This document shows positions 2,715-39,780 of a stretch of 64,000 nucleotides of DNA, in pieces. A model generated the notes under the pieces. It searched no databases, was not told the DNA's origin, and saw only the letters and a program-made list of their open reading frames with translations. This stretch comes from Cyanidioschyzon merolae (Eukaryota). The stretch lies in assembly GCA_000091205.1 (NCBI GenBank), contig AP006486.2; one strand, 5' to 3'. The translations under genes were made by a program, and so were the position numbers. Within the stretch, counting starts at the first letter, position 1. Each line of letters starts with the position of its first letter.

Positions 2715-3713
2715 ATATTCTCTCTGAATTAGCGAATAACGGAAGACTACACTCGTTCACAAATTCCCTAGGAAAATACTTGCCAGTGTACATATATGCG
2801 GTGCTCTGGTTGTTCAGGTTCGCCGCACTGAACCGCTTCAGGGCGCTGAGCTAGGCGGGGATCCATTCCCGCTGCCCCTGGCATATGAGTCGCTATCGTC
2901 GACAGTTCCCCAGTGTTTAGGTGTCATGCCTATCTGGCGTACGAAGCGATGTTCGTGGTAGCTCGCTCCACAGAGCCTCTCGCGACGCTCTGGATGCACG
3001 ACACTTTGTCGGTTGTCGATCGAGACGTTCAAGCGTCGGTGCAGAGAACGCCTAGCGCCGTGCGCTACCAAGTCCACGACCCGACGTGTCGTTCATTTCC
3101 GTTCCCAAACCGGTGCAGAAGCTTTCTCTCGATTGCACGCTTCCTGGCTCCGGATGACCGAGACCGGGGCGACTCCAGCGCCGTCGTCATGGACGTCTGC
3201 CACGGGATGCTCGTGTGACCTCTCTGGAAGCTCCTGTACGGACTGCATGGAGCGTGCAAGGCATCCCGCGCTGCTCAGCCCGGTGCGTAGCGTGTCGGGT
3301 GAGCACCCGGCGCCTGCATGTTGCTTCTTTGTATGCCACGTGGCGTCCACAGCGCTCGACTTTCGAAGATTCCGGGCACAGGTCGAGCTGAGCAGCTCCG
3401 TCTGGTTTGCTGGTCAGGCGTTCGGCTCCGTGCTTTTGGTTGCTCCGTGTGCGGCGACAGCCGTGAAGCGCCTTACCCGCGGATAAACGCTGAAACCAGA
3501 ATCTTTTTCCTGGTCTACCTGGATCGGTTGAGAAAGAGTCTCGTTGCGCACCGCTGGGCGAGGCCTCACCAAGTGCATCCAGACTGATGGTTTGTCGCTC
3601 TGCATGCTCCCGCAGACCGTTCTTCATTTCCTGGGAGTAAACGAGAAACATGGAATGAGCGCAACAGACGCTGTTTGCGAATCTGTTCCAATGCATCGTC
3701 GTTTCTTGCCAAG
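2715..3713. repeat. ~1.0 kb dispersed repeat R1, copy A (direct repeat of 8062-9060, ~98-99% identical)
   Basis: The track ORFs 2838-3077(-) and 8185-8424(-) are identical 79-aa products. The 101-aa ORFs 2913-3218 and 8260-8565 differ at 2 residues. Nucleotide identity starts at atattctctctgaattagcg and ends at gtttcttgccaagacca. Flanks diverge on both sides. Confidence 0.8.
2838..3259 (-). other. Frameshifted AraC/XylS-type HTH-like reading inside repeat R1 (possible pseudogene relic)
   Basis: The minus-strand reading ...RKRAIERKLL... (frameshift) ...VSIDNRQSVV...CGASYHEHRFVRQIGMTPKHW fits the C-terminal HTH_18 consensus (RlerAkxLL ... IAxxvGFsSxSyFsRxFKKxxGxTPsxYR). It is split over two frames and conserved in both R1 copies. 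Confidence 0.2.
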
Positions 3714-6351
3714 ACCAGCTGCAGCTCACAGAGAAGGCCGTACAGGCCGCTGCGCCAGTGTGTGGAGTACGCGAACAGGCATTTATGTAGGACAGGGGCA
3801 CCACATCGAATAGAAGCCCGCTGAGCATGTTATGCTGGCATACTATGAGCGCGTCCGCTTTAAGCTTGAGTGCTCTATTCATGAAAGCATATTCGCACAA
3901 ACTGTTGCGAAGCCGCGGCAGCCATGTCAGCTACCCTGCGGGTAAGGAGTCGAAAGATCCGTCATCCTGAGCAGCGCAATGAACTTGGAGAATTCGCTGC
4001 GAGTCTCGCTCTCATTGCGAGTTCTCTGTGGAACTCGGTACCTCCTCGATGTGTCGCGTTACCAGCGCGTCATTGACCCCCCATGGACACGCTCAGGAAT
4101 CCTTGCCATCAGTTCCCATTGTTCACGGTCAGCAGCGTATGCATATAATGCCCAGTGGGTGCGCCTCATAAAGCGCTTCGACACTGACCTGCTTATGCTT
4201 TTGGTCAGTGAAGCTGGATGGATACTTTTGGCAGCTGCCCTGTACCGCTTTTTTCGATCACCGACAAGACGCAGCGATGTGTCAAGGTATGCTCAGAGGC
4301 GTTTGCATGAGAATCTGATCCTCCGATCAGGCCGTCTTGTATCCCCTGTAACGAGAATCAGCTGTGCTGCTTCACAGAGGTCTGATCGAAGAATTCCAGG
4401 CGAATATGACCGGTTGGCAGCGCAGTGTCCAGAACTCCTCCGAAGACCTGCTCGGCGACATATGTGAAGACGAAAGCACCGAGGCGTTCATTCGTTGAAT
4501 TAGAAGCTGTACGATCTCGAATGTTTTTCCTGCATTGTTTCGTGTCATTGGTGCGAACAGCTCATCTACGGATCCGGAAGCGGAAAATTTGCATTCGACA
4601 TCATCGAATCAGAGAGAATATACGAGAACAATGTGCAGTTGAGCGCCAGTCCTAAACGTGTACTCCATTACTGCCATTCTATGACGTAACGCAATGTTTT
4701 CCATGAGCAGGACAGAATAATGTTCGAATGAGAAGCCACGAAGAATGGTTCAACGATAATGCGTTGGTATTGAAAGGGCCCGGGCTTTGGCCTTCTGAAC
4801 GCGACTCCATGAATAAATCGCCACTGGCGCCTATGTCGTGGTAAAACGCGCTTGTCTCTTCTCTTCGAAACAGCGCTCGATCGCCCTTCGAATATCTCTA
4901 CACAGGTGCGCAATTCTTCCCCAAAGAAACCTCATAGACAGAGACGAATACCCGTCGCTCCTGTACTTATCGCTCGCGTTTCAGTTCGAAATCGCTGGAG
5001 TGTTGTTCACAGCGTGACGAATTCGTGTAGCAGTGCGCTTTTTTACTCCATCCTTCCGTGTCTCTTCAACACCATTCATATCACTGATACGCCAAAATCA
5101 CATTTTATGGCCTCGTCGTCAGCATTCTTAGAGAATGTATGGAGTGGGACCGATTGACGGGGACACGGTTGTCTAGATACTGTTTGGTTTGGTGAGTTTC
5201 CGGCGCTCTACGTTCAGAGCGGGGATTTCGACGAGACTTGTGGTTCATCCACCAGCGAACCGTAGCATACGTGACTTGGAGAGACGAAAAAGTCTTTTCT
5301 CGCACGCTTGCAGTGACTGCATTCGCGCTTTTCGTGACCGTTCTTCAGTCTACGGGAAATCATTTCACTGACTACCCGCGAGAAAAGCAACCAAGAACAA
5401 AAGTGATCTGCTCGTATATCCAGTCTAAAAAGTACTTTTCTGTGTATAAAGCGGCCTGATTCGCTGGTACGATCATCCGCTCAAGTTTCTGCATGAAGCT
5501 TCCACAACGCAGTTTCGATACATGCATGGATGCTAGCCGCGGATGTGGGCACTGTAGACTCGGACAACTAACTGGCAGAGAGCGATCGAAAATCCTCTTT
5601 AAAGCAAGTGGGTGTATGGTGATGGTGCTTTCGATAAACTGCGCTGCAGGTTCAGCGAGGACGCCACAGGTACCGGTGACCGCTGACGCACCTCTTACCG
5701 AGCGGCAACATCTTGTGCCGCGTGCAGATACTTTGCTGGTGACGCTGGAGATTTCGCTCTGGTTCCTATTGAGTGAACGATACAACGCTTGCTTTTCAAT
5801 CCAAAAAGCAGGTCTATGGGAAATTCCAGCAGGTCTGGTTTTGAACCGTCATCCTAGTCCACTGCAGCATCGAGTTCCGCAATGTAATGGAGTATATCCT
5901 ATGCTTTCGCGTACGCAGATCGTGCCCTAGTCCAGAGACACTGGCCTGCTTCAACGGCCGTCCGTGGTGCGTCACAACCACAGCGGGAATATCGTTGCCG
6001 ACTATGTCCAGAACATAGCGTCCAGGGCTGGCCCGGGCACCCGTGCAAATCTGCTCCATTGCCATGATGCCACGCGCAACAACACTAGTGATGTAGAGCT
6101 CATAAAACGGTAGTGTATCGCCAGCGCATCCCTCTGACACACACACTCTGTGTGTGTGTGTGTTTGTTTGTTTGAAAAAGCTCCCTGTTCGGGCTACCAG
6201 AAACGAAACACGGTATGCTGCAGCCCCTGTGCTCACTGTGCATGGTTTCCTGGTCTCGAAACACGATTGTCTTCACTCGTATCGGGAGGCACGTGCAATG
6301 TGCATCGCAGTGCGTCTAGCCAAAGACCGTTCATGATGTCGCAGACGCTGG

Positions 6352-8061: not shown

Positions 8062-9060
8062 ATATTCTCTCTGAATTAGCGAATAACGGAAGACTACACT
8101 CGTTCACAAATTCCCTAGGAAAATACTTGCCAGTGTACATATATGCGGTGCTCTGGTTGTTCAGGTTCGCCGCACTGAACCGCTTCAGGGCGCTGAGCTA
8201 GGCGGGGATCCATTCCCGCTGCCCCTGGCATACGAGTCGCTATCGTCGACAGTTCCCCAGTGTTTAGGTGTCATGCCTATCTGGCGTACGAAGCGATGTT
8301 CGTGGTAGCTCGCTCCACAGAGCCTCTCGCGACGCTCTGGATGCACGACACTTTGTCGGTTGTCGATCGAGACGTTCAAGCGTCGGTGCAGAGAACGCCT
8401 AGCGCCGTGCGCTACCAAGTCCACGACCCGACGTGTCGTTCATTTCCGTTCCCAAACCGGTGCAGAGGCTTTCTCTTGATTGCACGCTTCCTGGCTCCGG
8501 ATGGCCGAGACCGGGGCGACTCCAGCGCCGTCGTCATGGACGTCTGCCACGGGATGCTCGTGTGACCTCTCTGGAAGCTCCTGTACGGACTGCATGGAGC
8601 GTGCAAGGCATCCCGCGCTGCTCGGCCCGGTGCGTAGCGTGTCGGGTGAGCACCCGGCGCCTGCATGTTGCTTCTTTGTATGCCACGTGGCGTCCACAGC
8701 GCTCGACTTTCGAAGATTCCGGGCACAGGTCGAGCTGAGCAGCTCCGTCTGGTTTGCTGGTCAGGCGTTCGGCTCCGTGCTTTTGGTTGCTCCGTGTGCG
8801 GCGACAGCCGTGAAGCGCCTTACCCGCGGATAAACGCTGAAACTAGAATCTTTTTCCTGGTCTACCTGGATCGGTTGAGAAAGAGTCTCGTTGCGCACCG
8901 CTGGGCGAGGCCTCACCAAGTGCATCCAGACTGATGGTTTGTCGCTCTGCATGCTCCCGCAGACCGTTCTTCATTTCCTGGGAGCAAACGAGAAACATGG
9001 AATGAGCGCCACAGACGCTGTTTGCGAATCTGTTCCAATGCATCGTCGTTTCTTGCCAAG
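8062..9060. repeat. ~1.0 kb dispersed repeat R1, copy B (direct repeat of 2715-3713)
   Basis: See copy A. The identical 79-aa minus ORF (8185-8424) and near-identical plus ORFs are present. Confidence 0.8.
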
Positions 9061-10136
9061 ACCAACCGCTAAAAGAGCGGACGATATCCACTGGCAAGCA
9101 ATTCGATACCAGTGTCGTTCGGCCTTCATGATAACCGTTGGAAAGGAGGATACGATTTCCGTATCTTCCAACGTTTGCCTTCTATGCCGAAGTGCCCGTG
9201 TGCCGGACGAGTATGCTGGGCCAGTGCTGCATGCTGCCCCCAGGGGTGGGTGCAGTTGCGCCACCTGAACAACTCGCCCGCAATGCAGTTGATTCTCGGA
9301 TTCAGGGCAGTTCGGGTGTGTCTCGAAGTCGCCCAGGTTGCAGTTATCTCCTAGTACACCGCATCGCGCTGCCGCATGCAGTAGGTCTGTCTGCGCAGTT
9401 TGCAGGCGCCCAGAATGATGTAGAGTGCCGACCCCGTGTCGGATGAACGACGCCTCGAGCCGACATGCCCATTGGTATGGCAACGCTGCTCTGTCTTTGT
9501 ATTGCATCCGCACTTGCGGTATAAGCGCTACAACGGGTGCAGCACTGCATGCACTCGGCGCGAGAGATACCATAACAAACGACCAGTGTATCCTAAAGAA
9601 AGTATGGGCCATGGAACCTGAAGGTACAGTGCGTCATGATGAATACGTTCCCGAATGCCTATATCCCTCATTTGATCTTGGGTATACGTTCAATGTAAAC
9701 CTTTAGTCGAACAAAAAATGGAAACGCTGCATAGGTGAATGAATAACGCAACATCCGCTCAAACCGTGCTACTGGCCGGCCAGTCTCCTCCGGAACGCTC
9801 ACATCATTCTATCAAGAGAATAACGATTGTGAACACACACTCGCCATCGACGGGCTTCCAGTCTGGCTCAGCATGGTCCCGTTACCATAACCCAATCGTT
9901 GCGTCTGTGCTAGTTTTCAACTTTCACTTGTTCAGCGCGGTAGTTTTCTCAAAAAAGTGCGCCGTTTCCGCTACGCCGAGCAGTTGCGTCACTCTCAGAG
10001 AAAAACGGTCGCAAGTGTAGGCGAGGCGTTTGTAACTGGACCACGTGTCCGGGGAGTGTCTGGCACCTGGTCTGTGGGGCGACTCCCTCAAAAGCTACAG
10101 CGGAGTCAGCATCAAGACTGGTTGCGTGTCTCGAGG

Positions 10137-18607: not shown

Positions 18608-21097
18608 CTTGAGGGCGTCGAATCCCCAATCACATCATGCAGTTAGGTATTTGGCTGTTTTGTGCGTCGGTATTCTCGGTTCACGCATCATGGAGCATGC
18701 GGGTGACTGGAGGCTCGTGATACATTCGCATGTGTGCGCATGAAGACGTGTGGGCATTCGGACTTGCAGGATCGACGCAGACTCGCGTGCGTTGGTGGTA
18801 GCGGCTTTCATGGGATGCAGCATCATCGTATGGTGCCAAGCGAGCCATCTTCGTTTACATGAAGCGATCGTTGCATGGATGGATCGACAGGTGTCTGATA
18901 TTGGAAGCGGGCGACGAGCGGGCGCTCAATGTCCCGCAGGACTCCCGCTCGATGTCGATCTGTAGCTGGTGGATATCTCGCAGCCGCTAGCGTCCTGGGA
19001 GCTACAGACAGCGAGTATGGAGCTCGTGATCGGCTCGAGGGCAGGCGCGCCTGCCTCCGGTCGTGTCTAGCGGTCGCTGGGCGTATTCCATTCAAGTTCA
19101 GCGGAAACAGTGCCTCGGGGGTTGTTCTCCAAAGCTCTCTGAGTAAAAAAATCATCCATGGTCGTGCGTTCTTGATCGAATGGAATGGTGTTTGCACTGA
19201 TTCGTGATCTATGAAAGGCGTGTCCAGAAAACAGGACACGTCACAGGGCTGTGAACGGTTCCCACGTGAAAATACACAAGTTTCCGGGTATTGGAAAGTG
19301 CTGCGCAGACAGTCACCGTGATTCGTGAACGTCTCCAGAGAAGCATCTCGTTCGTGTGTCCGGGGCGAGAAGCTGCTTGGGCGCGCGACAGCATTTACGC
19401 TGACGCATGCGTGGCCAGAAGCGTCGATGTTCTTGGCTGAAATGCTCGGCACGAGTCGGGCTCAAGTCTGGCTCCCTCGATGCCAGGTCGAACGTTATGC
19501 GCAGAACGGGAAAATCTGGAACACCTGGACCAGCACGCCACGTTTGCCTTTCTTGAGGGTATTCAACGAAGGCGTGCATCCTGTAACTTAGAGAATGCCT
19601 GACGGCTTTCTTTACGATGCCATTGCTAGCTTGCGAATATCTGATCGAACTTGTACAAGTAAGGCATTCCATCGTCGGCAAATGGATGACCCATCGTTTG
19701 CGGCGTCCGCATACTCCATATCGTTCGCTCAGAACGGAACCAGTATAAATCTATTCACAGGATTGTGTGCTCGTCCATCGGAGCCAATCCATTGCTTTTC
19801 TAAGAACTACCACGGAATAAGCCATATGATGTGAAGTTTCCATATAGTAGAGACGACCAGTGATGCAGATACGAATGGACAAGTTAAGAAACACGCTAGT
19901 AGTCGCACTGGTCGCACGTTGAGCAACACACGATCGATTCCGTACTGAAACGCGAACAGTTTGGGCACGACAGACGGGTATTCATCTCGCTCGATGAGAT
20001 TCTATTCCGCAGAAATCGTACATCTGCGTGTGGATACTCAACGAGCGGCAATGCAATGTTTGCAAAGAAGACACAGGCGAGCTTCGCGACTCTACCAGGC
20101 CAAGCGGCGATGTCGACGGGTGTTCGCATACAAACCTTCAAACAAGAGGAGCGTTTCGCACTCGATGCGTCACCTAAGCAGTCTTCGTGCATTCGCCTTC
20201 CCACATTCTTCCGTCCTGCTCTGAGATAACGTCGCTTTCCATCAATCTACACGGTAACGGAGATCGTAGCTGAGACTGTTGGTAAGCGAAACTTGATGCC
20301 AGCCTATGCTCAGTGGTTTCATCCATCCGGGCGCGTCTTCTCTATCGTCAAACGCCATTTTTATGTTCGACGATCAATAGACGAGTCATTCGAATCTGGG
20401 ACCCCAAACTTCTTCGACAAGTCGTTCTCTAGCTCCACCAGCCCGCAACTGCGCAGTTGCTTCTCTGCTCGTGCGTGCTTGGGGGTGAAAGGCCAGCTCT
20501 GGTCCACGGGCGTGCTCCCGATGGAGGAAATGACGAAAAAATGCGAGGAGCTGTAGATATACACCCAGAAGAGGCGAGTCTCGGTGGCAAAGTCCACCCA
20601 GTGCGCACGGGCCGTGGCAAAAACGAACGGATATACCGTATACCGACCGCGTTCCTGCCAAACCGCCAAGTAAACGAGAAGAAGAAGAAACCTCCGCATC
20701 ATGAAGAGAAAGATCCTCCTAAAGACAGTACGAGCATTGAGAGAGGGCAAAAAGTGTGAGGCCAGAGGGATTCGTCAAATACCTCTGTCGAGGACGCTCT
20801 ACGAAAATCCATCGACGGGGAACGTTTCCCGGAAATGTGATACAGCAAGGCACCAGTGATCGTAGAGTCTTGTCCTGGAGGAATGCTCACGCAGCGCCTC
20901 TCGACTTGAAGCACCTGGTAATGCCATTGTCCATGCGCGTTCTGAACGCCGGGCTTCTAGCTGCCTGCGCTCCTCTGGATTTTTTCAATCAAACCGTTGT
21001 GCAATTTCTGATGCTGGGGATAGATATTGTGAGACGGACTGAGACGCTCAGGGCTCGATATGATCCCGAGTTGGACGTGGCAGACGCCACGGGACAA

Positions 21098-24617: not shown

Positions 24618-25523
24618 CTAGCGGGCCAAAATCCCCTCTAATGGACCTTGCTGCGCATTCGATTGCGCAACGGCAACCATGAATGCCAGAACAACATCTA
24701 CTTGCACATCCAATGGAGCAACGGTTTCCATTGGACAGTGCAGGAAAAAAGTCTGCCACAGATGATGCCCGTTCTCCGCAAGACCCTCAAATGCGGAGAG
24801 ATAAAATAAGTAATTACATAAGAAACGACCCGCGTCGTCATTGACACGCACTGTCCAGTTCGTTCGACCCCACTCGTTCAGCAGGGACTCGGTGCGTTCA
24901 CAGAGAGAGGCCAACGCTTCCCCGTCAAGTTCGTAGCGTGCACCGAGCTGAGCACCACGGACGATTGGAATCGGCGTTGTCGGTTGCCAGCCTCTTTCAT
25001 CGGGGAATCGAAAAAGCGCCTCATTCACAGCACTGCGCTCGACGAGGAAACCATCCGCGGATGCGTCAACTCCGAGATGCAAGAAACAGACCGTCCTGTT
25101 TCTGCCATCTGACGAGATATTTGGTTTTTGTCGCATTTGGAGGCACTGGGTTTTCATTTCCGCAAGCGTCTCGTGAGCCGCTGCTGCCGACACCTCGAGG
25201 ATCCGCAGATCGACGATTCGCACAAGCCGCTCGTGCAACATCTGAACGCGACCTGGATCCTGCAGGATTTCTCGTAGTCGCAGCACGACACGCTCCGTCG
25301 GGTTGTCTTCCATAAGCGCAAACCGGCCAAATCCAGTGATGTAAAAGTATGTGACTGCTTTCGATAGCGATGGAGGCGCTCTTGGCAGGTCAACCACCTG
25401 CAGTTCGTTTTCATGCTCAGCGTTCGTCACTTGAGCTGACGAAACATACGTTGAATGAGCACCGCCCAGGTGGCCTGTTTCTTCGTGCGCTCCCACAGGT
25501 TTCGAAGTGCTCGCTGCGCGCAT
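24618..25523 (-). CDS. Pyroglutamyl-peptidase I-like (peptidase C15) with a ~55-aa N-terminal extension
   Basis: YITGFGRF..NPTE matches VVTGFGPF..NASW. LHLGVDASADGFLVERSAVNEA matches VHVGVSGMATTVTLEKCGHN. DAGRFLCNYLFYLS matches DAGRYLCDFTYYTSL (catalytic Cys). FLHCPM matches FVHVPP (His). First ATG at 25523 (the track starts at GTG 25550). Confidence 0.65.
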   Translation of the reverse strand: MRAASTSKPVGAHEETGHLGGAHSTYVSSAQVTNAEHENELQVVDLPRAPPSLSKAVTYFYITGFGRFALMEDNPTERVVLRLREILQDPGRVQMLHERLVRIVDLRILEVSAAAAHETLAEMKTQCLQMRQKPNISSDGRNRTVCFLHLGVDASADGFLVERSAVNEALFRFPDERGWQPTTPIPIVRGAQLGARYELDGEALASLCERTESLLNEWGRTNWTVRVNDDAGRFLCNYLFYLSAFEGLAENGHHLWQTFFLHCPMETVAPLDVQVDVVLAFMVAVAQSNAQQGPLEGILAR

Positions 25524-25624
25524 CCCAGTGAGCCACGCTCTCCCCTGCACCGCACACCAACAACGAACGCCTCAAAAGACAAAAGTTGCTGCAGGCAGTG
25601 TACAGTAGTGCGGAGAAACCCGCC

Positions 25625-26381
25625 CTAGACAACTCGTCGCCAACTGACTTGCAGACGCCTCCTGGTCTTTTCGGACCGGCCACCTACAACTGATTCCATC
25701 TTTTTCTCATATAATTCAACTTTTAGAAGTTGTCCCACAAAGTTCGCTCGTGTCGACGCTGGAGGTCTCGTCTCCAGCATCGCACTTTTCCTTATATGGA
25801 TTGCTGCGTTACAGCCTCGGTTCATAAACTCCATTCGTTTATTGCCGCTGGTGGAAGTCACCATTTTAAGGAGTCCTTGAAGTCGTGCCTTCCGTTCCAT
25901 TTCATTTGCTGTCACCTCACCGTACTTTTCTATATCTTCTAGGATTTGCTGGCTCTTCCCCGTCTCGGCCGTCTGAATTGTACGCCCCAGTTCATCCCAT
26001 AATATTTTAAAATCAAGGCACTGCTTTATGCATTTAGCTGAGGACATTCCCGGAGGAGATAGCACTTGCGCAGAAAGGACGACAGGTGCCCCGGTAGTGT
26101 TGTATGCTGAGCGCTTCAGCGATTCGCTCCATGCATCGATCGATACGTTTCACGATACAAAACACTCCCTCAATGGGGTAGACCAACGGAAACCACTAAA
26201 GAATGAAAACCAGCTCTATCCAGACAGAATCGGCAAGATCTCGAACGCAACAGGAATGATGAAATGCCAGTTTGTCCCGTAGAAGGACGTCGTTAGACGT
26301 CAGGGAAAAGGGACCCTTAATTCGACAACGTGGTTGAACCTGTTGTACGAGGCTGCTCTTCAAGTTCGATCTTATACACAA
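25625..26381 (-). pseudogene. Decayed TnpB/Fanzor-like relic related to the 38598-39752 ORF (frameshifted, internal stop, inactive RuvC-III)
   Basis: Minus reading ILEDIEKYGEVTANEMERKARLQGLLKMVTSTSGNKRMEFMNRGCNAAIHI...TRPPASTRANFVGQLLKVELYEKKMESVVGG aligns colinearly with RTPEDIAKYGPLTEEQMERMAKVRGLLALGSTINGKKRMEFVSRDFNAAINV...RRPPELKRENFTGQSLKVELYERKLEAVVAG. SRD has become NRG. Upstream, ..AYNTTGAPVVLSAQ (matching KGTTPAPTIRT) follows an in-frame TGA at ~26150, and an earlier segment is in another frame. Confidence 0.5.
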
Positions 26382-27575
26382 CGGACTCTGATTGCTCGTG
26401 TACGCTCAGAGCGTTTCGTACGAGGCAAGTCGCATCGACTAAAAAAACAAACCGACGTCCTTGTGCTTCATATCCATAGTGACTTTCCAGGAGCTTTGTT
26501 GTAGTTGCTGTTTCTGTCGAAGATGGCCGTGTTTGGACTAGGACTTTTTTGCGACGATATGTCTCAGTGTTTTTGGGACCGCACGAACAGACTTCTGCGA
26601 AACAGAGACGCCGTTTGCGGCTACGATCATCGCTTTTCTTTGCTTCCCGTAAGGTGATCGACGAGTAGTTTTAAACCATGGACCGCAACCAGTCTCTAAG
26701 AAGATCGATTTTCGGTACGTAACTCAAATCCTGCTTCCTTCCCGTGCTCCTCGACCATCAGAGTACTGTGATATAACTGACGTGAAGGATGGATGCAGAC
26801 CTCGTTGCACTTTTCAGCAAAGAATATATCTTGTAGGCCATTCGTCTACGATATATGCGGCACGTTTCATCGATATTTCGATCCCTTACTATACACTGCG
26901 ACAAAGCATTCGAATACTCTCTCCGCGGGGACGAAACAGCATGTAGTAGAATGGCGATCCATCCAGCGGTGCGAATCGCACCGTCCACGAGTTGCGTTTA
27001 ACGTCCAGAGATCGAAAACTTGAAGAGTGTCTCTTTTGAGCATGCACCATAGAGGCAATGGAGAAGAATGTGTGCTTGCACGTATGCACTACCTCATGAT
27101 ATGGGTTCTATGTCGAACGCTTATTCGGATGCGTTGTGAATCACCATGATTTCGATGATGTACCGAGTTCCAGCGCAAAATATTCGATAGAATCGCTCTG
27201 GGAATCCGACCGAAAACCCTGACACTACACATGAACTCGTATGCCCCGGTCGCTGCACTTCGAATCCAGATGCTGTACACCAAAAAATAAAAGTGAAAAG
27301 AAATAGAAAGGTAGGCGCAGAACGAACACTTCAACAGACCACCTCCAGTTCGATACGACTACTGGTTTGCACCGACGCGCCTGTACGTCGCGTCACAGGT
27401 CGCAACGGATGACGCTTTGGGGTGGGCGTTCGCGCGTACCGCTCCCTAGAGCAAGAACGCGAATAAAACAGCTCCGAGTGTGAGGAGCTTCGGCTCTACC
27501 CGATAGACGCTGTGGTGCGAGATACGACTGCGCGATAGGGAACCTCCGGCGCCGGTGGAACGACGACGCTCGGGA

Positions 27576-28352
27576 ATGAGCGCGGACTCTGGAAAATGTG
27601 CAGCGTGTTGCGTTGAGCACTGCCTCTGTAAGCGCGAAGCCGTTTTCCGAGCTCACCAAGTTCACTGCGTTGAGGTCGAGAACGAGCCAACGCACCCCGA
27701 GCTATTCCGGAACGAGTGGGTGCGAGTCTACGCAGGCATCCTCGCAATAGGGAACTGTACCTTGTTCCATAGGCACACGAGAGATACCCTATACGTGACG
27801 CTTCGAGACGCAAGCCTACTGAATGAATACTTTGTGGACCCGTCGCTTCGAGATGCGCACACAAAGACCTACCGACACGATGCGAGGCGTTTCGAGGTCT
27901 TTGGGCGGTGGCACGCTACCGACCAGAACCCACTTGTCCACCGGGTGTGTTATCCGTCGGACTGGGCGAAATCGCTTGCCGACCGCAGCGCTTCTCCTAC
28001 AACACTCTTTATTGGAATCGAGTTTCTGGCGTATCCTGAAGTGAGTCCAGCACTTATCGTCGCAGACGCTGTCCGCATCGAGAGCGTCGCGGAGTACCTG
28101 CAGGAGCCGAGTAGTCCACGTATGCGTCTCTGGCGTCTTCGCGAAAACCTTGAAGCGATTCGATTGCCTTTTCACTGTGTTGTGATCGAGTGGAGCTCGC
28201 CTCTGGATGAGCACTGGGATACAACTGATCTCGCAACATTAATGAAGCTCACTGCTAGTCGAGTGCGATTCGTTCCGGCTGGTGTGCAGCAGCTGCGCGT
28301 GTTGGCTAATACGCTCGTGGTAGAGCTGAGGTCAAGAACCGATCCATCTTGA
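27576..28352 (+). CDS. Hypothetical protein
   Basis: 258-codon ORF from the first ATG (the track starts at GTG 27555). Composition is protein-like (…LFIGIEFLAYPEVSPALIVADAVRIESVAEYLQEP…). No family recognised. Confidence 0.35.
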   Translation: MSADSGKCAACCVEHCLCKREAVFRAHQVHCVEVENEPTHPELFRNEWVRVYAGILAIGNCTLFHRHTRDTLYVTLRDASLLNEYFVDPSLRDAHTKTYRHDARRFEVFGRWHATDQNPLVHRVCYPSDWAKSLADRSASPTTLFIGIEFLAYPEVSPALIVADAVRIESVAEYLQEPSSPRMRLWRLRENLEAIRLPFHCVVIEWSSPLDEHWDTTDLATLMKLTASRVRFVPAGVQQLRVLANTLVVELRSRTDPS

Positions 28353-29688: not shown

Positions 29689-32600
29689 TTCCAGTCAAAA
29701 CTTCAACGGTGATAGCGCAGGCTAAAAGCGCTCGTTCCCTTTGCAGAGGCCTCGCTGAGCGTCCGAACGCCAAGGTCAAGCGCTCGAGCGGGGATGGGGT
29801 ACGCTTCAAGCGCCGCGTCTGCGCTGCTCGTTTCATAAAAGGGTCAGTTGGATACCGGCAGGTTTCTGCTGCCACAGCCGAATACGTCACGATGTGCCTG
29901 AAACCTGTACGGACTCCAGGAAGGAAACGAGTGCTTTTTAGGATTAGAAATTAACTGCGGAGCTTTTGAATTGCGACAAAAACAGCACGACCAGGAAAAG
30001 CAGTTGACGTTGGGTTGCACGCTCGAACGTGTACAACCCGCGGACGATTCTGCTGAAGATGCGAACTGGGAACCGAATATCGAAGAATTATCTTTATTAT
30101 TAGGAAATGTTCAGGTTTCGCGAGATCAAGGCTAAGACAGCGTACCAGATTTACGCGTTGAGTTGATCTCACGAGTTGCCGGCAGCAGAGGTGTCTGAAT
30201 GAAGCAGCAACCTAGCGGTACGTTGGCCCGCGCTCCAGTGGGAACCCGGGACCCTGCAGCAGGCTGCGGACGCTTCCTCATGGTCATCGTGAACGTTTCT
30301 ACACGCTGAACGCTTTGAACAAGTGCATCGACGGTTGGTCGGAACACTTTGCGTCACGTCTGGTGGACGGCACCTCGCTATGCGCACAACGCTGCAACAG
30401 CGCAGTGTGTGCCAGCGTGTCGCTCACCAAAGATGCCTGGTAGTTGACGGCAGTGCTGCGTTTTGGCAGTGTCGTGCATCCTCGAAAGAAGAAGCGAAAG
30501 CGACAAACGTCCCTGATTCATGGCAGATGCTGTGGTATGGAATGGAGCCGGATGCAAGTTGCGACTGAACCGGCGATTCTATGCTCCTTTGACGTAAAGC
30601 AGAGCGTGTTGGAACACCTTTGCCAGAACGGACTTTCGGTTTGTGTTTTGTTTCACACAGGTATTCAAGAAATGGGTTGTATCCTGTAGATTGGAGAAAG
30701 GTCGCGCAAAGAGATTGTATGAAGTCATTGCGAGCTTGTGAAAAGAAACAGTTTTTCTCATACGAGTCAGTCGGTCCACGGTCAGCCGGCAGATGCGCTG
30801 CCCGGCCTCGTTGTCCTGGTTCTAAGCGCCGCGTACTCAAAACAGAAGTTATTCAACCCCATTTGCTTCGCTGTTTGGTCGACAATCCATTACAATCTGT
30901 CCGTTCCTTGAGGATTACTACTACTGGAGAATCAACAGAATAGGCCGTGTTCGCACCGCTGAAGCAAATGTTAATAAAAGAGCACCGATGGGCAAAGGAA
31001 GTGAAAGCATGCTTCACTGGGAGGTCATCGCGTGCTGACCAACATGCCGTTGATTTCGTACGAGGACACGAACGCTTCTGCTTTCAGGTACCAGGGGCGC
31101 GCTTCTCAATCGATCATGCTTGATCCGGGGAGAAATTGCGGACGTGCACATGGGTCATTAAAATGAGGTACAGCGCTGTACGTAAACAGAACACGAGCGG
31201 ATTCGACGATTCCATCAGACCGAGTGGCAATCGAATGTCGTGGTCGTGTACAAACTGACAAGCAGACACGATAGGTTCACACTTGATCCTTCATCGATGG
31301 AGGCTTCGTGAGCTCGCCTCCCTGAATTCTCTCCCCTGCTCGCAGACAATGTCACTTTACATCATTCAAAAGTGGTCACGGATTATGCATCCGGTATTTA
31401 CGAGGATCACCTCTTCATGCCATTGTATTTATCCTGTTCCATTCAGTCGGAGGTGTTATTTCTGTCGTTCAACGCCATTTTTACGCTCAAGGATCAATGA
31501 ACGAGTCGTTCGCACCAGAAACACTGAGGGATGTAGGACGCCATTACGCATAGCAAAGCCTATGATTCGAAGAAGGCTCGCCTTGCTTTCATCTTTTCAA
31601 CGCACCTCGTCAGGCAAATATTTCTCGTAGTTCCGCATACAGGGCTATCTACCGCCCGTATTCCTCAGGAATCTTTCGATCTAGCTTTCGTGCGACAGCA
31701 CAACTGATGCTCAGGAGAGAAGATGCAGTACAGGATGATCGCGTGATCAGAGATTTGCGCGCTTGCTTTTCAGAATACCTGGACTAGTTGCCGCACCACC
31801 TAGGCGGTCGGAGCATTTACCGCGCAGGTGCCGAGAAGCACCAAATCATCCGCCTATACCAAAAGCATACGCGGGTCATTCACCGGAGCTTCATGAAGCG
31901 CGCCTTGAGCGCGTTGTCGCTTCTCTCTACTGACCGAGAAAAGCGGGGTCGCATGAAAGGGATTCTCGGGATGTACGTGGAGGCAACAAAAACTGATTCT
32001 TGCTGAAGAGTTCAGAGAGGTAATGCGTTTAGGAGATATGTCGCAGGGGGCGCGAACATCGCCAGCACTCGCCCAGTCTCATCATGTTGCTTCGTGCCTC
32101 GACCGACAAACGTTGCATCGGAAGGATAGTTCGTATATCTGACGTCTGGCTCTCTCGCGTCTTGCGCTACTACATGTTCCTGCAAAATGCGTCACAGAGT
32201 GAAGCGGACGCCCCCGCCATATCCGAGTAACGTAGCCTCGTCGAGCGTCCATTGGATGCGGTGCTCACACATGTCGGACCAGGGGGCATTCCAACGCCGT
32301 AGAGACTTGTGAATTGTACCGCAGTGTATGAAGGTCTGCGCGGTCAGCTGCGACTGGTCCCTACCCTCAAGTATGAATCATTCGACAGCTTTGCCAAGGG
32401 CATTCACTGGGCGAATTCAAAATTGCCCATGACTAGGGAGTAATTCGAAAGCATTTACCGGGTTTGCAGAGACCGACGGAACATCAGCCTGCATGCACGC
32501 TTCCACGCCTATGCTTCATTCGAGCAACGGATCGCATTTTTAACCGTTCAAGTTGGATGAAGGAGAGATTTCGTGGCGAGCGCGAATGCCTGGGTGAAGG

Positions 32601-32743
32601 GCAACAAGGCGATCGCCAAGCCTCAAAGTCAAGAGGACGGATCCAATATCCCGAACGGGAACCAGATGAAGTTCCTCAATGGTTCATGGACCCGGTATAA
32701 TCGAGCGCCGGGCATGACGGACGATCGGTGAGAAACCAGCGAA

Positions 32744-33621
32744 TAGTAGGTCGGCACCAGGACCCGTGCCAATGCCCCGAACCCTGTCCTGGACAGAGGC
32801 GATGCTGCATACGCTTCATTCAGAGAGTACATGCGGGTCCAGATTTTTCGACCAGACGATCTTTGCTACAAGGACCGGAGAGCATGCTGGCGTCCTCAAC
32901 AACCGATTCCGTTGCTCCATGTCACGAGGCGGTCACTCGCCAACCTCTTCATTGAGATGAAGAACAACAGCACCGATGCGTCGCGTCGTATGCTCGAGAC
33001 CTCTGACGCGGCACGTTTTGGAGAGCGCAACAGCTTCACGTTTGTCCCTTTGATGGACGGGTACAACGCGTGCAGGGATCGGTGCTGCACGATGCCCATT
33101 GATGCCTTCGGAGCGAGATTCACACATCTCGAGCGCAAACTGGCGCTGAAGCGGGCATCCAGGGAGAGCGTAAAGCAGCGACACATCCACGATGTGGTGT
33201 CCGGAAGCATGACCGAGCGTCAGCCTGCCACGAAATCGAAAGCGAGTAACTTGCCGAGCTGGGACTCTACCAGAAACCATGTGCACAAGTCCGTTTTTCT
33301 TCGCAGAGACTTGAACGCCTCAGTGAACGCCAGAAACTATTTTGTGCTTCCGGATTGATCATCGAGTTTGCATTTTTGGCGGTCATCATGTCATTCACCA
33401 GGGTGGTACTTGGATGAAACGCCGAACCCCTTCGATGAACTCATCGGTCGCCACGAGCGACAGACTTCCATCCCGGCCTGGAACGAGGTACGCGTACATG
33501 ATGGAACGGCACGGCGAACGCTGGACACCCAGCACACCCGGATCTCCGTCTCAGGACACTGGAAAAGGCCCCGCATGCCAATGGGTGCACTTTCATGGCG
33601 CTCCACGATTCACCATTACCG
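32744..33621 (+). mobile_element. ~0.9 kb repeat element E2, copy 2
   Basis: Near-identical to 21098-21991 over the whole length, with the same ORF set (32831-33358, 33342-33641). Confidence 0.6.
32831..33358 (+). CDS. ORF of element E2 copy 2 (TnpB-like C-terminal fragment; see 21194-21721)
   Basis: 175 aa, 4 substitutions relative to copy 1. The YNACRDRCC and RRDLNASVNARNYF motifs are retained. Confidence 0.3.
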   Translation: MRVQIFRPDDLCYKDRRACWRPQQPIPLLHVTRRSLANLFIEMKNNSTDASRRMLETSDAARFGERNSFTFVPLMDGYNACRDRCCTMPIDAFGARFTHLERKLALKRASRESVKQRHIHDVVSGSMTERQPATKSKASNLPSWDSTRNHVHKSVFLRRDLNASVNARNYFVLPD

Positions 33622-34074
33622 AGGATGCCTTCCATCGTTGAATGCGTCCGCCTCGTGCAATTCATCGCGTTCCATCAGGAGGTGACGACCTTCTCGCACA
33701 CATTTCAGCCGGATTCCATTCCACGACAATGCGCATGAGCTGTCGATGCGTCGCTTGATCATTCGTTGCAGGTCATCGCGCTCGCCAAACTGGAGTTGTA
33801 GATGATAACCTGTCTAGCGCATGGTGTGTTTACTCGGCAGATCACATGAAAAACTTTAACGCTTCAGGTAAAGTGCTCTATCATCTATCATATACAATTT
33901 GCAGGTCGCTTTGCGGGCCAGCAACGACACCTCAAGCCAGCCAGACTTGTCCGAGCACCGGCAATCTCCATCTCTGTCAACCGTTCATCCGATAATCGCA
34001 TATGCGGTCGCTGGTTCATGCGGCCTGTTTCGAAGCGCAGCACACTGCGCCATGCTGGTGTTCTGCATCCGCAC

Positions 34075-34099
34075 AGACAGACACACACACACACACACC
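34075..34099. repeat. (AC)n microsatellite
   Basis: gacagacacacacacacacacaccaag. Confidence 0.85.
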
Positions 34100-34616
34100 A
34101 AGCACCGTATAGCAACGATCGGAATGTATGTATACGATGCGATGAATGGAGGGGATGTATGATGTGTGCAGTGTATCCCATCGGTGATGCGTATCGCGTC
34201 CACGATGCATGATGCAGGATGTACATCAAATTTGTCGTAGGTGCAGTGTACACAGCACCTGCACGATATCCTGCACCAAGGATATCCTTGATGCGTAGCG
34301 CACCCGCAGTGCAGAATCTGCTCGTGATGCGTTCTGTCTGGAGAGGACGTACCAGTGCGCACCAGTACACTGCTAAAAAGAATCGGTGCTGACGTCACTG
34401 TGGCGCGCATCAGGCATCCGCTATGGTCACACGACGCTGCTGGAACGGACACACGTCCACGAAGACGACGCTCCTGACCAACATCGGCGACTAGCGCCTC
34501 AGTAACACCGTTTCCGTTGATACGTTGGCACACAAGCGATCCCGTCATTCCGTCTATCTTCCGCTTCCATGGCATCCGCACGATGCAGTGCTTTGTCTCA
34601 CGCGTTTCATGATGTA

Positions 34617-36707: not shown

Positions 36708-37600
36708 AGTACATATGACGGAAAAACGTATCTTCTTCCGTTACGACACGCAAAATAAGAAACGTCGTCGTCACTAGAACACAAACGACTGTTCACACCA
36801 GACGTAACGCTTTGGCAACCCGAAGGTAACGCGAACGATGCGACGCTCGGTACTGTGCTCTGTACCCAGCATCAAATCTGCGGCAGATTCCGCATCGCCA
36901 CAGAGAGGCGTTTCTGTGGACACCGTCGGTTGACCCGCGTGTGTTCGACGCGAGCATCCGCGGTGGTGGTGGTGGTGGTGGCAGCGGCAGCGGCGGCGGT
37001 GCTGGTGATCAGACAGCGCCCCCCGCGGCTCAAAATTTCGACGCTGCGCGCGAGGCGACCGTTCCTTCCGGCGCTGTGTGGATTCCCTGCCCGATGACAG
37101 CACGTTTCCGTTGACCACGGATGCCGGCATTCGGGATGGATATTCGCTTTCGGGAAAGCGTCTACTAGGAAGCACCTACCTTCAAGTTCCATTCCCCGTA
37201 CTTCGTCTCGTATGCACTGGTCGTTTCGTATGCTCTGTCGTGTGCCGAGTGCCTGCCTCGAGCACTCGCCGTAGCGCTTATACCGCTGAAGCAGGTGCTG
37301 CACGGAGACAGAACGGCGTTGCCATACCGCAGAGGGCGTCGGCTCGCGGAATCCTACATGTGACACGCAATCACGGCGAATTCTCATTCCGGGAGCCTGC
37401 AAGATGCGCAGTCAGAAGCGCTGCCTGCGATAGCGCGAGGCGATAGACGAAGAGTCCACTGGGACCTGGGCGACGCCCAGATGCAGCATCCTGCTCCTAC
37501 TCCCGAGCTGAACGAAATTGTGAACGAGTTGCTCAGATCTGACTAAAGTACCTGCCACTGGGAGAAGCATGAAGCACGAGCCTGGGATCCTGTCTTAATT

Positions 37601-39757
37601 GATATATCAAGTATCTATCAGAGCGAAAGTTGCGGGTGGGCATGAGAAACCGTGCGTCGAGTCGTACTCCGTGAGTATCATAAAGGCTTCCTCAGGAATA
37701 ATGCTTTTGGTGAAGGCGATGTATCGCGACTTGACGCAGATCGAAACAGTCGAGGTTTCGGAGGAGGAATTTTTCGACAAGAGCTTTCATCGTCACCTGA
37801 TGCTTGGCACAGGGGAAGCGCGGAGCAAAAAATAAGTGAGTGCACGCCCTCCACGAACACCACGCCGAATACCGCTTCAGCGGTGCTCCATACAGGGGTG
37901 ACTCGCGAATTTACGAATACGCGGCGATGGAGTACCGCACGAACCTGAAGAATCACGTGGTCGTGAAACTCGAACGTTTCATGATACGCTCCATCTTTGC
38001 GTAGTATCCGGGCCTCTCTCGCAAAGGAATATGCGCGATCATCGACAGCATCACGAACGATTGTCAGCATGAACAGGAGATCGAATTCGTCGACAAGAAG
38101 GCGTCATATAGGAGAAGGAATGAGGTTTCTGTAATCCGCGCCACTATTGAAGAGAACCGTGCGGTCTTGGGGCCGGCGAATCCAGCAGAAAAGGTATCAG
38201 ATATGAAATAAACATGGAAAAAGATGTTATCCTTTAATTCTGCTCGATTTCGTATTTTTGGACCGAGAATCCGAACGCAAGGCGGAGATGAAGCTGAGTG
38301 AGGAAAAAATGAAGAGTGGGAGAGACGGAAGGCTGTCCGAATGGGGAAGCGCTTCAACGTCGTTCCAATGTGCAACATCAAGTCACATTTTGTGACTGTC
38401 GACTCCAGAATCCTTCATGACTTCATGAAAGAGATCAGTCCCGAGCTCAATGTTAGCAGGGAGGGGTTCTCCGGCGAAAACCGGGTGACGTTCTGCAAGA
38501 GAATCTTCGATTTCAAACGTCTCAATGTGAGCAAACAAGGGGTATTACTGGGATGATCGAAACCGATGTAGTGGCCATGTGTGTACACTAGCGGCGCTTG
38601 AAGAAAGATCGTCCAGTTCCGTCTGTGACGAAAGATGAAGATAAGAGGAAGGCGGATCCTGCGACACAGAAAGTTCAGGATAACTTTTTTGTCGTTGGCG
38701 CAGACCCTGGGAATACGAATATCATAACCATCGCTGTACCCAAACGTGCGGAAGATGGTACTGACGGCAACTTACGTCAGAAACACATACGTCTTTTGAG
38801 GTTCTCGAGAGCGAGATACTATCGAGAATCCGGTATAATGAATGCAAGGAAGAAAATTGATACGTGGAATGCAGGAATGAAGGATCACCTCGAAGTTTTG
38901 GGCGAGGTGACGAGTCGAGGAGCGGACTTTGAAGCTTTTCGGAAATTCATGGAAATACGCGTTGCTCATTGGGATGCCTTGTGGGAGGAGTGTACCAAGC
39001 CCCGGTGGGCTCGTTTGCGTATGAATCTGCACTGTGGGAAGCAGCGGGCGTTTGCCAACTTTTTCAATCAGTTGAGCGCTCTGAAGAGGAATGAAAGTCA
39101 GAGGCTCGTAGTAGCGTACGAAGCAGGGCGCTGGAAGACCCAAAAGGGGACCACGCCAGCCCCAACGATAAGAACGTACAAAGAGTGCGCAAGGCGTTTT
39201 GTTACGATACCTGTAGATGAGTTCCGAACGTCCTATACACATCACGAACTGGGGTGTACACTTCAGAGGGTCGAGATGGAAAGGTGCCAGCGGACCCCTG
39301 AGGATATCGCAAAGTATGGACCGCTGACGGAAGAGCAAATGGAAAGGATGGCGAAAGTTCGTGGACTGCTTGCATTAGGAAGCACCATCAATGGCAAGAA
39401 ACGTATGGAGTTTGTGAGCCGGGACTTTAACGCCGCGATCAATGTAACGATATGCGCAGCGATGGAAAGGAGACCTCCAGAGCTGAAACGAGAGAACTTT
39501 ACTGGACAATCACTCAAAGTCGAACTATATGAGAGAAAGTTGGAGGCAGTAGTCGCTGGCCCGCCGAGCAAGGCTGGGAGGCATCTGCACATCCGTTGGA
39601 GACTTCTTGTCCTGGGCGAGTTTCTCGCCACCACTGTACACTGCCGGCAGCAACGTTTTTTCTTTTGGAAGTTGTGTGTCGTCGTTCTGGCACTGGAATG
39701 GAGTTCATTCACGACGCCTTCGGACGAGGCGTACGTTCGTTATCCCACTTGAATATC
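37601..39757 (+). mobile_element. Putative Fanzor/TnpB-bearing transposon-like insertion (~2.16 kb), AT-rich 5' half
   Basis: There is a sharp GC-to-AT shift at ~37595. The left end GATATATCAAGT (37601-37612) and right end ACTTGAATATC (39747-39757, reverse complement GATATTCAAGT) form an imperfect 11/12 inverted repeat with one indel. The right inverted repeat overlaps the ORF stop (TGA 39750-39752). GC-rich host sequence resumes after 39757. Confidence 0.4.
38598..39752 (+). CDS. TnpB/Fanzor-like RuvC nuclease (OMEGA family); RuvC D-E-D triad intact; N-terminal WED/REC region not in this ORF (possibly intron-split or degraded upstream)
   Basis: RuvC-I FFVVGADPGNTNIITIAV (Asp codon 38703-38705). 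TnpB-like helical linker ARLRMNLHCGKQRAFANFFNQLSAL. RuvC-II LVVAYEAGRW (Glu 39120-39122). YKECARRFVTIPVDEFRTSYT with a degenerate zinc ribbon (HHELGC…RC). RuvC-III SRDFNAAINV (Asp 39423-39425). The track start is TTG, with no in-frame ATG before residue 79. Confidence 0.65.
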   Translation: MKKDRPVPSVTKDEDKRKADPATQKVQDNFFVVGADPGNTNIITIAVPKRAEDGTDGNLRQKHIRLLRFSRARYYRESGIMNARKKIDTWNAGMKDHLEVLGEVTSRGADFEAFRKFMEIRVAHWDALWEECTKPRWARLRMNLHCGKQRAFANFFNQLSALKRNESQRLVVAYEAGRWKTQKGTTPAPTIRTYKECARRFVTIPVDEFRTSYTHHELGCTLQRVEMERCQRTPEDIAKYGPLTEEQMERMAKVRGLLALGSTINGKKRMEFVSRDFNAAINVTICAAMERRPPELKRENFTGQSLKVELYERKLEAVVAGPPSKAGRHLHIRWRLLVLGEFLATTVHCRQQRFFFWKLCVVVLALEWSSFTTPSDEAYVRYPT

Positions 39758-39780
39758 CAGTGGGTGCGCACAAGGCGCTG
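39480..39780 (+). ncRNA. Candidate omega-RNA (Fanzor guide RNA) scaffold overlapping the ORF 3' tail and right end; the guide would derive from flank 3' of 39757
   Basis: The ~85-codon post-RuvC-III tail is not protein-like but is conserved at the nucleotide level with the relic copy. One block, tttctcgccaccactgtacactgccggcagcaacgttttttcttttgg, versus tttctccgcactactgtacactgcctgcagcaacttttgtcttttga, is ~88% identical over 47 nt. A local stem cctcag/ctgagg lies at 39845-39890. Placement follows TnpB/Fanzor biology. Confidence 0.3.

Follow-up and report, generated by a model that had tools for sequence, protein, structure and literature searches.

The gene for pyroglutamyl-peptidase I (PGP) of Cyanidioschyzon merolae begins beside the remnant of a Fanzor-type element, and the question at this locus is whether transposon sequence has become part of the host gene. 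Host genes may acquire promoters, 5′ UTRs or coding exons from transposon fragments. We analyzed a stretch of 64,000 nt of contig AP006486.2 (GenBank assembly GCA_000091205.1; hereafter the window), for which an initial annotation had described a degraded, inactive second copy of the element directly upstream of PGP, overlapping the start of the gene and underlying the N-terminal extension of its product. The description as a degraded and inactive copy is upheld. The relic is very probably a dead, internally deleted copy of CMe-1A, of a rare variant with a DDE_3 transposase gene before the Fanzor gene. It encodes nothing functional and adds no codons to PGP. The coordinates of the features are given in Table 1.

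Table 1. Features of the relic, its neighbor PGP and the other CMe-1A copy in the window.
Feature	Position	Strand	Basis or remark
Pyroglutamyl-peptidase I (C15) gene (PGP), 301 aa	24618..25523	-	Host-gene neighbor, outside the element; Peptidase_C15 match, identity, orthologue alignment
Gap between element end and PGP start codon, not element-derived	25524..25551	-	28 nt (profile end); 44 nt (published consensus end)
Right end of the CMe-1 relic: non-coding 3′ tail with the native TAG (25627-25625)	25552..25627	-	nhmmer, copy comparison, published consensus
Last 123 Fanzor1 codons (CMe-1A ~2735-3107)	25628..25996	-	Protein profile, BLASTP, blastn to consensus
Fanzor start-codon remnant (ATG 26000-25998) and junction 25997/25996	25997..26002	-	Pairwise alignments to L070, L071 and CMe-1A consensus
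DDE_3 (IS630/Tc1-mariner-type) transposase pseudogene, then short spacer before Fanzor ATG	26003..26913	-	Homologous copies, tblastn, Pfam
Left end/leader of the relic, tentative	26865..26961	-	Resembles CMe-1A just upstream of Fanzor ATG (profile 838-914)
CMe-1A copy, earlier called intact; pseudogene	37066..39697	+	nhmmer, blastn to consensus, frame translations, 3′-end alignment

CMe-1A is a Fanzor1 family of C. merolae with a published consensus of 3169 bp, a family identity of ~80% and no TIRs; its 5′ 635 bp correspond to TE-N2_CMe, its TE class is listed as unknown and a transposase is not mentioned (Bao and Jurka, 2013; PMC3627910). A description of this family, of the genome that hosts it and of its state of decay has been available since 2013. 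From metagenome copies we built a second family consensus, which is 94–95% identical to the published CMe-1A. The family has about 150 old copies, the relic among them, and other loci hold internally deleted and 3′-only derivatives of it.

The Fanzor part of the relic was identified at the DNA and the protein level. Against the 38598 ORF, which belongs to the other copy in the window, positions 25993–25573 align to 39246–39667 with 73% identity over 423 nt (blastn, E = 1e-65), and the translations are 49% identical over 122 residues without gaps (BLASTP, E = 2e-37). Positions 2737–3163 of the published CMe-1A consensus match 25995–25572 at 79.9% identity (blastn, E = 2e-107), a family DNA profile matches 25997–25547 (nhmmer, E = 8e-93; profile positions 2924–3372 aligned to 25995–25552), and positions 388–511 of the protein profile A2 match 25999–25631 (E = 5e-46). 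The initially noted minus-strand homology, which concerns the 3′ portion of the 38598 ORF, is therefore real, but the colinear Fanzor sequence placed at 26001–26381 and upstream is not: that region gave no match to the family protein profile when filters were switched off and E values up to 100 were allowed, and tblastx, tblastn, unfiltered protein HMM and DNA profile searches detected no Fanzor homology in 26000–27600. Two of the decay marks first ascribed to the relic also fall away, as the supposed in-frame stop corresponds to the stop codon with which the family consensus normally ends its ORF (GTC TAG GGC), and the protein profile and BLASTP alignments contain no frameshift in the Fanzor-homologous segment, where at least two had been counted.

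The copy that served as the intact reference proved to be a pseudogene itself. CMe-1A positions 495–1074 are deleted from it, its N-terminal half contains stops and frameshifts, and its stop codon has changed from TAG to CTG (39612–39614), so that the ORF reads ~60–80 nt into flanking DNA. It matches the published consensus at 85.8% and 80% identity (blastn).

Alignment of the relic to the consensus and to two homologous copies located a deletion of ~1.8 kb, by which CMe-1A ~910–2734 (Fanzor codons ~2–610) is gone and the Fanzor ATG is joined to codon ~611. The homology resumes at the HHELG codons, just past the DEFRTS motif (conserved Glu, [TS][TS]). Upstream of the ATG, the ORFs at 26196–26381 and 26034–26186 were considered as Fanzor sequence and rejected, since neither gives a BLASTP alignment to the Fanzor ORF and their match is to a DDE_3 transposase (E = 9e-11). 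The transposase pseudogene proper (26043–26913) carries stops and frameshifts, and shows 66–73% nucleotide identity to three other loci (L070, 2589–3504; L071, 7618–8565; L098, 2628–3560). With P0276 and P0277 as tblastn queries, window positions 26100–26309 are matched at 50% (E = 1.6e-17). P0276, which is the ORF of L071, reaches 32.6 bits with Pfam DDE_3 (gathering score 28.6); the window's own transposase frames are below Pfam significance. The transposase is followed by Fanzor sequence from profile position ~913 in all three informative copies (window, L070, and L071), and the flanking DNA differs each time.

The left boundary of the relic is tentatively placed near 26955. Homology to the three other transposase-bearing copies, all degenerate and with 5′ ends compared by eye, begins at about 26913–26955. 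The resemblance of the leader to CMe-1A is a weak nhmmer match (4.6 bits; E = 0.003 for the window and 3.5e-5 for a small target), and no significant counterpart was found in the other three copies. Consensus positions 1–800 are unmatched in 25400–27600, where the DDE_3 pseudogene occupies their place. A lower GC content at 26.7–27.3 kb was confirmed (46% vs 55% for the window). No convincing inverted repeat joins the ends of the relic, the 5′ and 3′ termini of the family are not complementary, and no target-site duplication of the relic was found; decay may hide both features.

From these features we infer the following order of events. An element would have inserted 28–44 bp before the start codon of PGP and in the orientation of that gene; this point is placed by the family ends, because no empty site was found in close relatives. 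The intergenic DNA shows no homology to that of sister species, which are too diverged. A later 1.8-kb deletion would have fused the Fanzor ATG to codon ~611, and in the course of decay the transposase gene would have gained its stops and frameshifts and the RuvC-III aspartate would have become glycine. What remains is a remnant of ~1.4 kb (about 26955–25552), made up of leader, transposase pseudogene, 123 Fanzor codons with their stop, and a tail of ~60–75 nt.

In TnpB and Fanzor systems the guide RNA normally comes from the 3′-terminal region, which the relic has kept in its entirety, and an ORF of 146 codons (25625–26065) is still open. The relic could on these grounds have a function of its own, the ORF encoding a protein or the 3′ end yielding a Fanzor guide RNA with the PGP 5′ flank as guide, and some CMe-1A copies are reported still to encode an intact Fanzor1 (Bao and Jurka, 2013; PMC3627910). 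We regard this as highly improbable. The frame is open in the Fanzor segment, but it lacks RuvC-I, whose aspartate (DPG motif) was lost by deletion at the junction, as well as the DEFRTS glutamate motif. RuvC-III, as reported initially, now reads NRG (Gly codon GGC, 25816–25814), where the consensus has NRD and the window's other copy SRD. Moreover, the first 22 residues of the ORF stem from the junction spacer, and one strain SNP falls in its stop codon, at 25625.

Folding and strain variation bear on the same point. For the 3′ end of the family, RNAalifold predicted 7 pairs from 43 copies, with no compensatory changes; single-sequence folding gave a mean z of -1.1, with recurrent hairpins behind the stop and at the terminus. 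Many copies form a terminal hairpin, but in the relic substitutions and the loss of 2 nt disrupt it, and the relic's 3′ end folds no better than shuffled sequences (z = +0.3). Neither an Rfam family nor a tRNA was detected there. Of the strain-level contigs, 11 of 11 contain the relic, at 99.2–99.5% identity. It carries 10–16 SNPs per kb, compared with 12–16 for other non-coding and 5–7 for coding DNA; these figures have low power (39 variable sites in 4.1 kb), and the density in the relic looks neutral. A relic transcript acting as an orphan guide RNA or a regulatory RNA tied to PGP, with the 28–44 nt before the start codon as guide, is less credible still, because the hairpin is broken, the folding does not exceed that of shuffles and the SNP density is neutral-looking. 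The relic is best read as a dead copy, probably evolving without selective constraint.

Whether this dead copy reaches into PGP depends on where it ends. Homology does continue past the stop at 25625, as first proposed, but not to ~25520: it ends at 25568–25552. By the published consensus the element ends at 25568 (GGCG), and by the profile alignment at 25552. In comparisons with 62 other copies, the point where similarity stops has a median of 25564 and a 90th percentile of 25551. The family terminus ...CTTTTGAAAGGCG is matched by the right end of the relic, which reads CTTTTGA--GGCG and ends at 25568. The relic does not overlap the PGP start, since both estimates of its right end lie upstream of the ATG.

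As first reported, the PGP ORF has its first ATG at 25523, and the same start is annotated for C. merolae 10D, whose protein XP_005535495.1 is identical at 301 of 301 positions. The protein matches Pfam Peptidase_C15 with 24.1 bits (cutoff 22.7), and E171, C245 and H271 are invariant in an alignment of 7 sequences; Glu, Cys and His form the known catalytic triad of the pyroglutamyl peptidase I family (MEROPS C15). The N-terminal extension is encoded by about 25523–25350 and lies entirely outside element-derived DNA, contrary to the initial placement, so that no host-coding sequence overlaps the element. It comprises 60 residues before the conserved FY(I/V)xGFG core, against 38–69 in orthologues, and is present in P0122 (Cyanidiococcus), P0123, P0125, and P0126 (Cyanidium); in two of three other cyanidialean lineages its length is comparable to that in C. 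merolae. At the PGP loci of Cyanidiococcus (P0122) and the P0123 lineage no element was found upstream (tblastn; nhmmer at E ≤ 1), and the gene order around PGP is conserved in the orthologous loci. The comparison of orthologues that had been named beforehand as decisive hence went against an element-derived extension: the extensions exist, and the fetched loci (P0122 and P0123) are free of the element. The N-terminal extension is evidently ancestral.

That PGP recruited the right end of the transposon for its 5′ coding region, making the extension element-derived, is very unlikely. This reading draws on the closeness of the relic end to the ATG and on a 29-nt patch (25510–25482) that resembles 39745–39773, past the other copy, with a score reached by 0 of 500 shuffles. 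That score of 24, however, ranks 19th among 1891 flank pairs, within the range of unrelated flanks, and the family homology halts before the ATG. A proposed terminal motif is indeed present, at 27257, but only 2 of 64 family 3′ flanks share it, both belonging to the window copies, which is chance level. In its general form, ACTT(C)GAA..CC(A/T)G, the motif has 4 loose matches in the window, where 0.6 would be expected, but it is missing from the other family 3′ flanks and was rejected as a chance occurrence. The element-free orthologous loci, together with the extensions of the orthologues, lead us to reject coding co-option.

A contribution to the regulation of PGP is a different matter. The insertion may have displaced the ancestral upstream region by ~1.4 kb, so that the core promoter of PGP, most of its 5′ UTR, or both would now lie in the 3′ part of the relic (about 25552–25800). 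The gene is intact, conserved and annotated, the element ends just 28–44 nt from its ATG, and the relic has the orientation of PGP and occurs in every sampled strain. A short 5′ UTR with its initiator inside the 28–44-nt gap would serve equally, however, as would upstream elements acting across the relic; SNPs are as dense in the relic as in other non-coding DNA, and there is no sign that its sequence itself matters. We consider such regulatory exaptation possible but doubtful. The literature on C. merolae transcription start sites offered nothing usable. As the relic fills the expected promoter space of PGP, it offers a simple opportunity to test for promoter replacement, in an alga amenable to routine gene targeting.

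Set beside transposon fragments that act as donors, the relic is similar in that it directly precedes a conserved host gene and shares its orientation, and differs from donors of coding exons in having no coding overlap. As an old family copy that added nothing to the PGP protein, it is an ordinary finding. It agrees with CMe-1A in host genome, identity (~80%), right end, native stop and the lack of TIRs, but it is without the TE-N2_CMe head, has a DDE_3 pseudogene instead, and is missing 1.8 kb of its Fanzor ORF.

Comparison with solved Fanzor1 nucleases required a deep alignment. A profile from 78 diverse relatives of the family matches the structures from Parasitella parasitica (9cf0, E = 2e-20), Spizellomyces punctatus (8gkh, E = 5e-12) and Guillardia theta (9cer, E = 4e-7), whereas a shallow profile of 25 close copies had no match in the PDB. 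Pfam gave only a sub-threshold Cas12f1-like_TNB hit for the 384-aa ORF and full-length relatives, and AlphaFold2 from a shallow alignment reached a pLDDT of 38. The family profile aligns to the solved nucleases over the RuvC lobe, including DPG (RuvC-I), DEFRT and NRD. For Fanzor1/TnpB-like RuvC nucleases the motif D...[TS][TS]..Zn finger..RD has been described (Bao and Jurka, 2013; PMC3627910). Unlike the solved nucleases, the relic has just the part that follows DEFRT, with NRG replacing NRD.

In PUl-1 and PGv-1, Fanzor1 genes lie inside Mariner/Tc1 transposons with TIRs of 24–33 bp and TA target duplications (Bao and Jurka, 2013; PMC3627910). The relic differs from them in that no TIRs or TA duplication were found and its arrangement is known from four degenerate copies only; as TIRs and a target-site duplication were not found, a Tc1/mariner-type classification of the composite is incomplete, and the literature on a link between Mariner and CMe-1 provided nothing usable. 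Like them, the relic combines an upstream DDE transposase gene and a downstream Fanzor1 gene in one mobile unit. The copies with DDE_3 before Fanzor hint that CMe-1 may descend from a composite of the IS630/Tc1-mariner type, like other carriers of Fanzor1.

For the 384-aa Fanzor ORF of the plus-strand copy in the window (the 38598 ORF), the protein database contains 204 close relatives, and at least 342 loci in the metagenome collection encode a relative. This close family was not recognized by Pfam or PDB searches. A wider profile of 78 diverse relatives, drawn from an exhaustive search, matches the solved Fanzor1 nucleases of Parasitella (9cf0, E = 2e-20), Spizellomyces (8gkh, 5e-12) and Guillardia (9cer, 4e-7), with the DPG, DEFRT and NRD motifs all inside the alignments. 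The family is CMe-1A, described in C. merolae as ~150 copies, each ~80% identical to a 3169-bp consensus, that lack TIRs, have undetermined target duplications and carry a separate element, TE-N2_CMe, as their 5' 635 bp (Bao and Jurka, 2013; PMC3627910). The published consensus (supplementary file 2 of that paper) is 94–95% identical to our own, built from 20 metagenome copies. Ahead of RuvC-I, the linker includes a tandem repeat of ~24 aa (KHEEKKEA..ATQKVQDNDFVV) whose unit number varies from 1 to 5 among copies (proteins P0011 and P0008; DNA-profile positions ~2130–2310). In protein P0118 (581 aa), methyltransferase Pfam domains stand beside a segment with 64% identity to the 384-aa Fanzor. 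The protein probably reflects a gene call running on into a neighboring gene, and is worth noting because a Fanzor-methyltransferase link has been the subject of speculation (Bao and Jurka, 2013; PMC3627910).

CMe-1A-related and DDE_3-like sequences in the window (P0276 and P0277, transposase proteins)
Feature	Coordinates	Strand	Similarity
CMe-1A consensus match	37589-39671		85.8%
CMe-1A consensus match	37092-37585		80%
CMe-1A consensus match (relic)	25995-25572		79.9%
Solo TE-N2_CMe (~635-bp 5' head of CMe-1A)	9051-9744	-	consensus match 9708-9072, 74% to CMe-1A 5-636; profile 32-679, E 3e-118
Weak DDE_3-like relic	31336-31461	+	24-42% aa identity to P0276/P0277, E 1e-4 to 4e-3 (range for all three)
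Weak DDE_3-like relic	19991-20397	+	as above
Weak DDE_3-like relic	4615-4887	-	as above

The copy at 37066–39697 (+), called intact in the initial annotation, is a pseudogene: ~580 bp (CMe-1A 495–1074) are deleted, and the N-terminal half of its Fanzor gene contains several stops and frameshifts. A second, degraded minus-strand copy was indeed found upstream of the pyroglutamyl-peptidase I gene (PGP). The two pair at 39246–39667 (+) and 25993–25573 (-) with 73% identity over 423 nt (blastn, E = 1e-65), which tblastx widens to 39238–39705 and 26001–25534. The relic ORF (25625–26065) is 49% identical to the 384-aa ORF over 122 residues, ungapped (BLASTP, E = 2e-37). A DNA profile of the family matches the relic at 25997–25547 (positions 2924–3372 of 3376, E = 8e-93), and the sole match of the Fanzor protein profile to the relic is at 25999–25631 (positions 388–511, E = 5e-46), with no further Fanzor sequence upstream of 25999 when filters were disabled and E values up to 100 allowed. 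RuvC-III is mutated as annotated, the aspartate being replaced by glycine (NRG; GGC at 25816–25814). The Fanzor-homologous segment is a single open frame closing at TAG 25627–25625, and the supposed in-frame stop is this native stop of the family, GTC TAG GGC in both consensus sequences. Homology does continue past it, but merely as the 60–75-nt right-end tail that follows the native stop. Both features had stood out because the other copy has CTG instead of TAG at 39612–39614, so that its ORF overruns the element end (39671–39697) by ~60–80 nt into the flank.

Further upstream, the ORFs 26196–26381 and 26034–26186, previously assigned to Fanzor, do not align to the Fanzor ORF by BLASTP; the former matches the transposase P0277 (E = 9e-11). 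A Fanzor identity was ruled out for the whole of 26043–26913, which is transposase-like instead. It is 66–73% identical in nucleotides to three other loci, L070 (2589–3504), L071 (7618–8565) and L098 (2628–3560), and its conceptual translation shows motifs characteristic of IS630/Tc1-type DDE transposases. P0276, encoded by the L071 copy, exceeds the Pfam DDE_3 gathering score (32.6 vs 28.6 bits) and is 50% identical to 26100–26309 of the window (E = 1.6e-17). The three further weak DDE_3-like relics in the table, none of which adjoins Fanzor sequence, suggest that the genome contains several old families of the IS630/Tc1 type.

At L070 an almost complete Fanzor gene, from profile position 913 on, comes directly after the transposase piece; at L071 the piece is followed by positions 913–1129 and then 3163–3270. 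In the window it leads into the spacer that precedes the Fanzor ATG (TTATGG; ATG 26000–25998), and this is fused between 25997 and 25996 to CMe-1A ~2735, at the HHELG codons that closely follow DEFRTS. As judged from these sequences, transposase and Fanzor form a single unit, and the relic is such a composite element minus ~1.8 kb (Fanzor codons ~2–610). Its left end is tentatively, and probably, near 26955, where mutual resemblance among four copies begins and a weak CMe-1A leader match is found (4.6 bits, E = 0.003). Just past this point lies a low-copy repeat (26958–27180 (+), opposite in orientation to the relic), also present at L019 (5749–5972) and L022 (7926–8140; ~65% identity, E = 1e-6 to 1e-8). 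Other loci likewise contain family derivatives that are internally deleted or reduced to the 3' part, and this type of decay is therefore not unique. Short derivatives with similar breakpoints, joining profile positions ~820–1115 to ~3016–3370 (L032 7016–7530 (-), L034 8696–9255, L047 6250–6866 and L071 7618–8975), resemble a non-autonomous deletion family that has been amplified. They point to a true left end for the Fanzor-bearing unit near CMe-1A ~790, downstream of the TE-N2_CMe head.

An alignment of 64 distinct family 3' ends showed strong conservation through ...CTTTTGAAAGGCGTT(T/C)G, followed by collapse. Similarity of the relic to 62 other copies stops at 25564 (median) or 25551 (90th percentile), and its end is placed at 25552 by the DNA profile and at 25568 by the published consensus. 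The first ATG of the PGP-like ORF (24618–25550) is at 25523–25521, as annotated, beyond 28–44 nt of unrelated sequence. Given this short distance, the PGP transcription start and promoter may lie inside the relic, a regulatory role that we consider less likely than not. A 29-nt patch (25510–25482 against 39745–39773) outscored 500 shuffles but ranks 19th among all 1891 family-flank pairs, some unrelated pairs scoring equal or higher. The motif at 27257, taken earlier for an element end, is present, yet family 3' flanks other than those of the two window copies have no such motif, and the two ends of the relic share no inverted repeats.

The PGP protein is identical (301/301) to C. merolae 10D XP_005535495.1/BAM79209.1. 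Its orthologues, 35–49% identical to it, are P0122 of Cyanidiococcus yangmingshanensis, P0123 of a second lineage, P0126 of Cyanidium caldarium and two more sequences; all have 38–69 residues before the invariant FY(I/V)xGFG core (60 in C. merolae). Gene order is conserved (ABC transporter, steroid dehydrogenase, a 258–300-aa gene, PGP, LisH/CTLH), and no Fanzor or CMe-1 similarity was found upstream of the fetched orthologous loci (tblastn; DNA profile at E ≤ 1). The proposal that the PGP N-terminal extension derives from the element is thereby refuted; the initial observation is partly confirmed, its coding co-option reading rejected. The spacer between the steroid dehydrogenase and ABC transporter genes (29689–34616) is ~4.9 kb here vs ~1.0–1.4 kb in Cyanidiococcus and the P0123 lineage, and probably holds more inserted DNA, since one DDE_3-like relic lies within it.

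Passive decay of an old insertion is the best-supported account: an element would have landed next to PGP, lost its activity through a large internal deletion and point mutations, and become fixed. All 11 hot-spring metagenome contigs covering the locus contain the relic and match at 99.2–99.5% identity without indels. Variable sites number 10–16 per kb in the relic, 12–16 in other non-coding DNA and 5–7 in the two flanking genes, and one falls in the relic stop codon; with few sites, the variation is consistent with neutrality. As predicted from its sequence, the relic cannot encode an active nuclease, since it lacks RuvC-I and the DEFRTS glutamate and its RuvC-III is mutated; stops and frameshifts likewise preclude an active transposase. 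Many family copies have GGCG...CGCC hairpin potential right after the stop and a ~10-bp terminal hairpin (alignment A4, columns ~197–272), the latter in different registers in two subfamilies (TCGTTCGA-CTT-TCGAACGG vs AACGTTTTTC-TTTT-GAAAGACGTT); both window copies (39610–39690; 25630–25552) have degraded versions. Such hairpins could be a guide-RNA scaffold or a transposition signal, with no covariation support from RNAalifold. That the relic itself retains a guide-RNA role is very unlikely: covariation is absent across 43 copies, its terminal hairpin is disrupted, it folds no more stably than shuffled sequences, and it has no Rfam match.

The relic is an ordinary member of a family whose host, copy number and age are already published. 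It differs from the CMe-1A consensus in having a DDE_3 pseudogene in place of TE-N2_CMe. The Mariner-borne Fanzor1 elements PUl-1 and PGv-1 (Bao and Jurka, 2013; PMC3627910) are similarly arranged, although their defining TIRs and TA duplications were not found in the relic. We found no mention of a DDE_3 link of CMe-1 in the searchable literature; supported by four degenerate copies, the link is a small lead toward classifying CMe-1.
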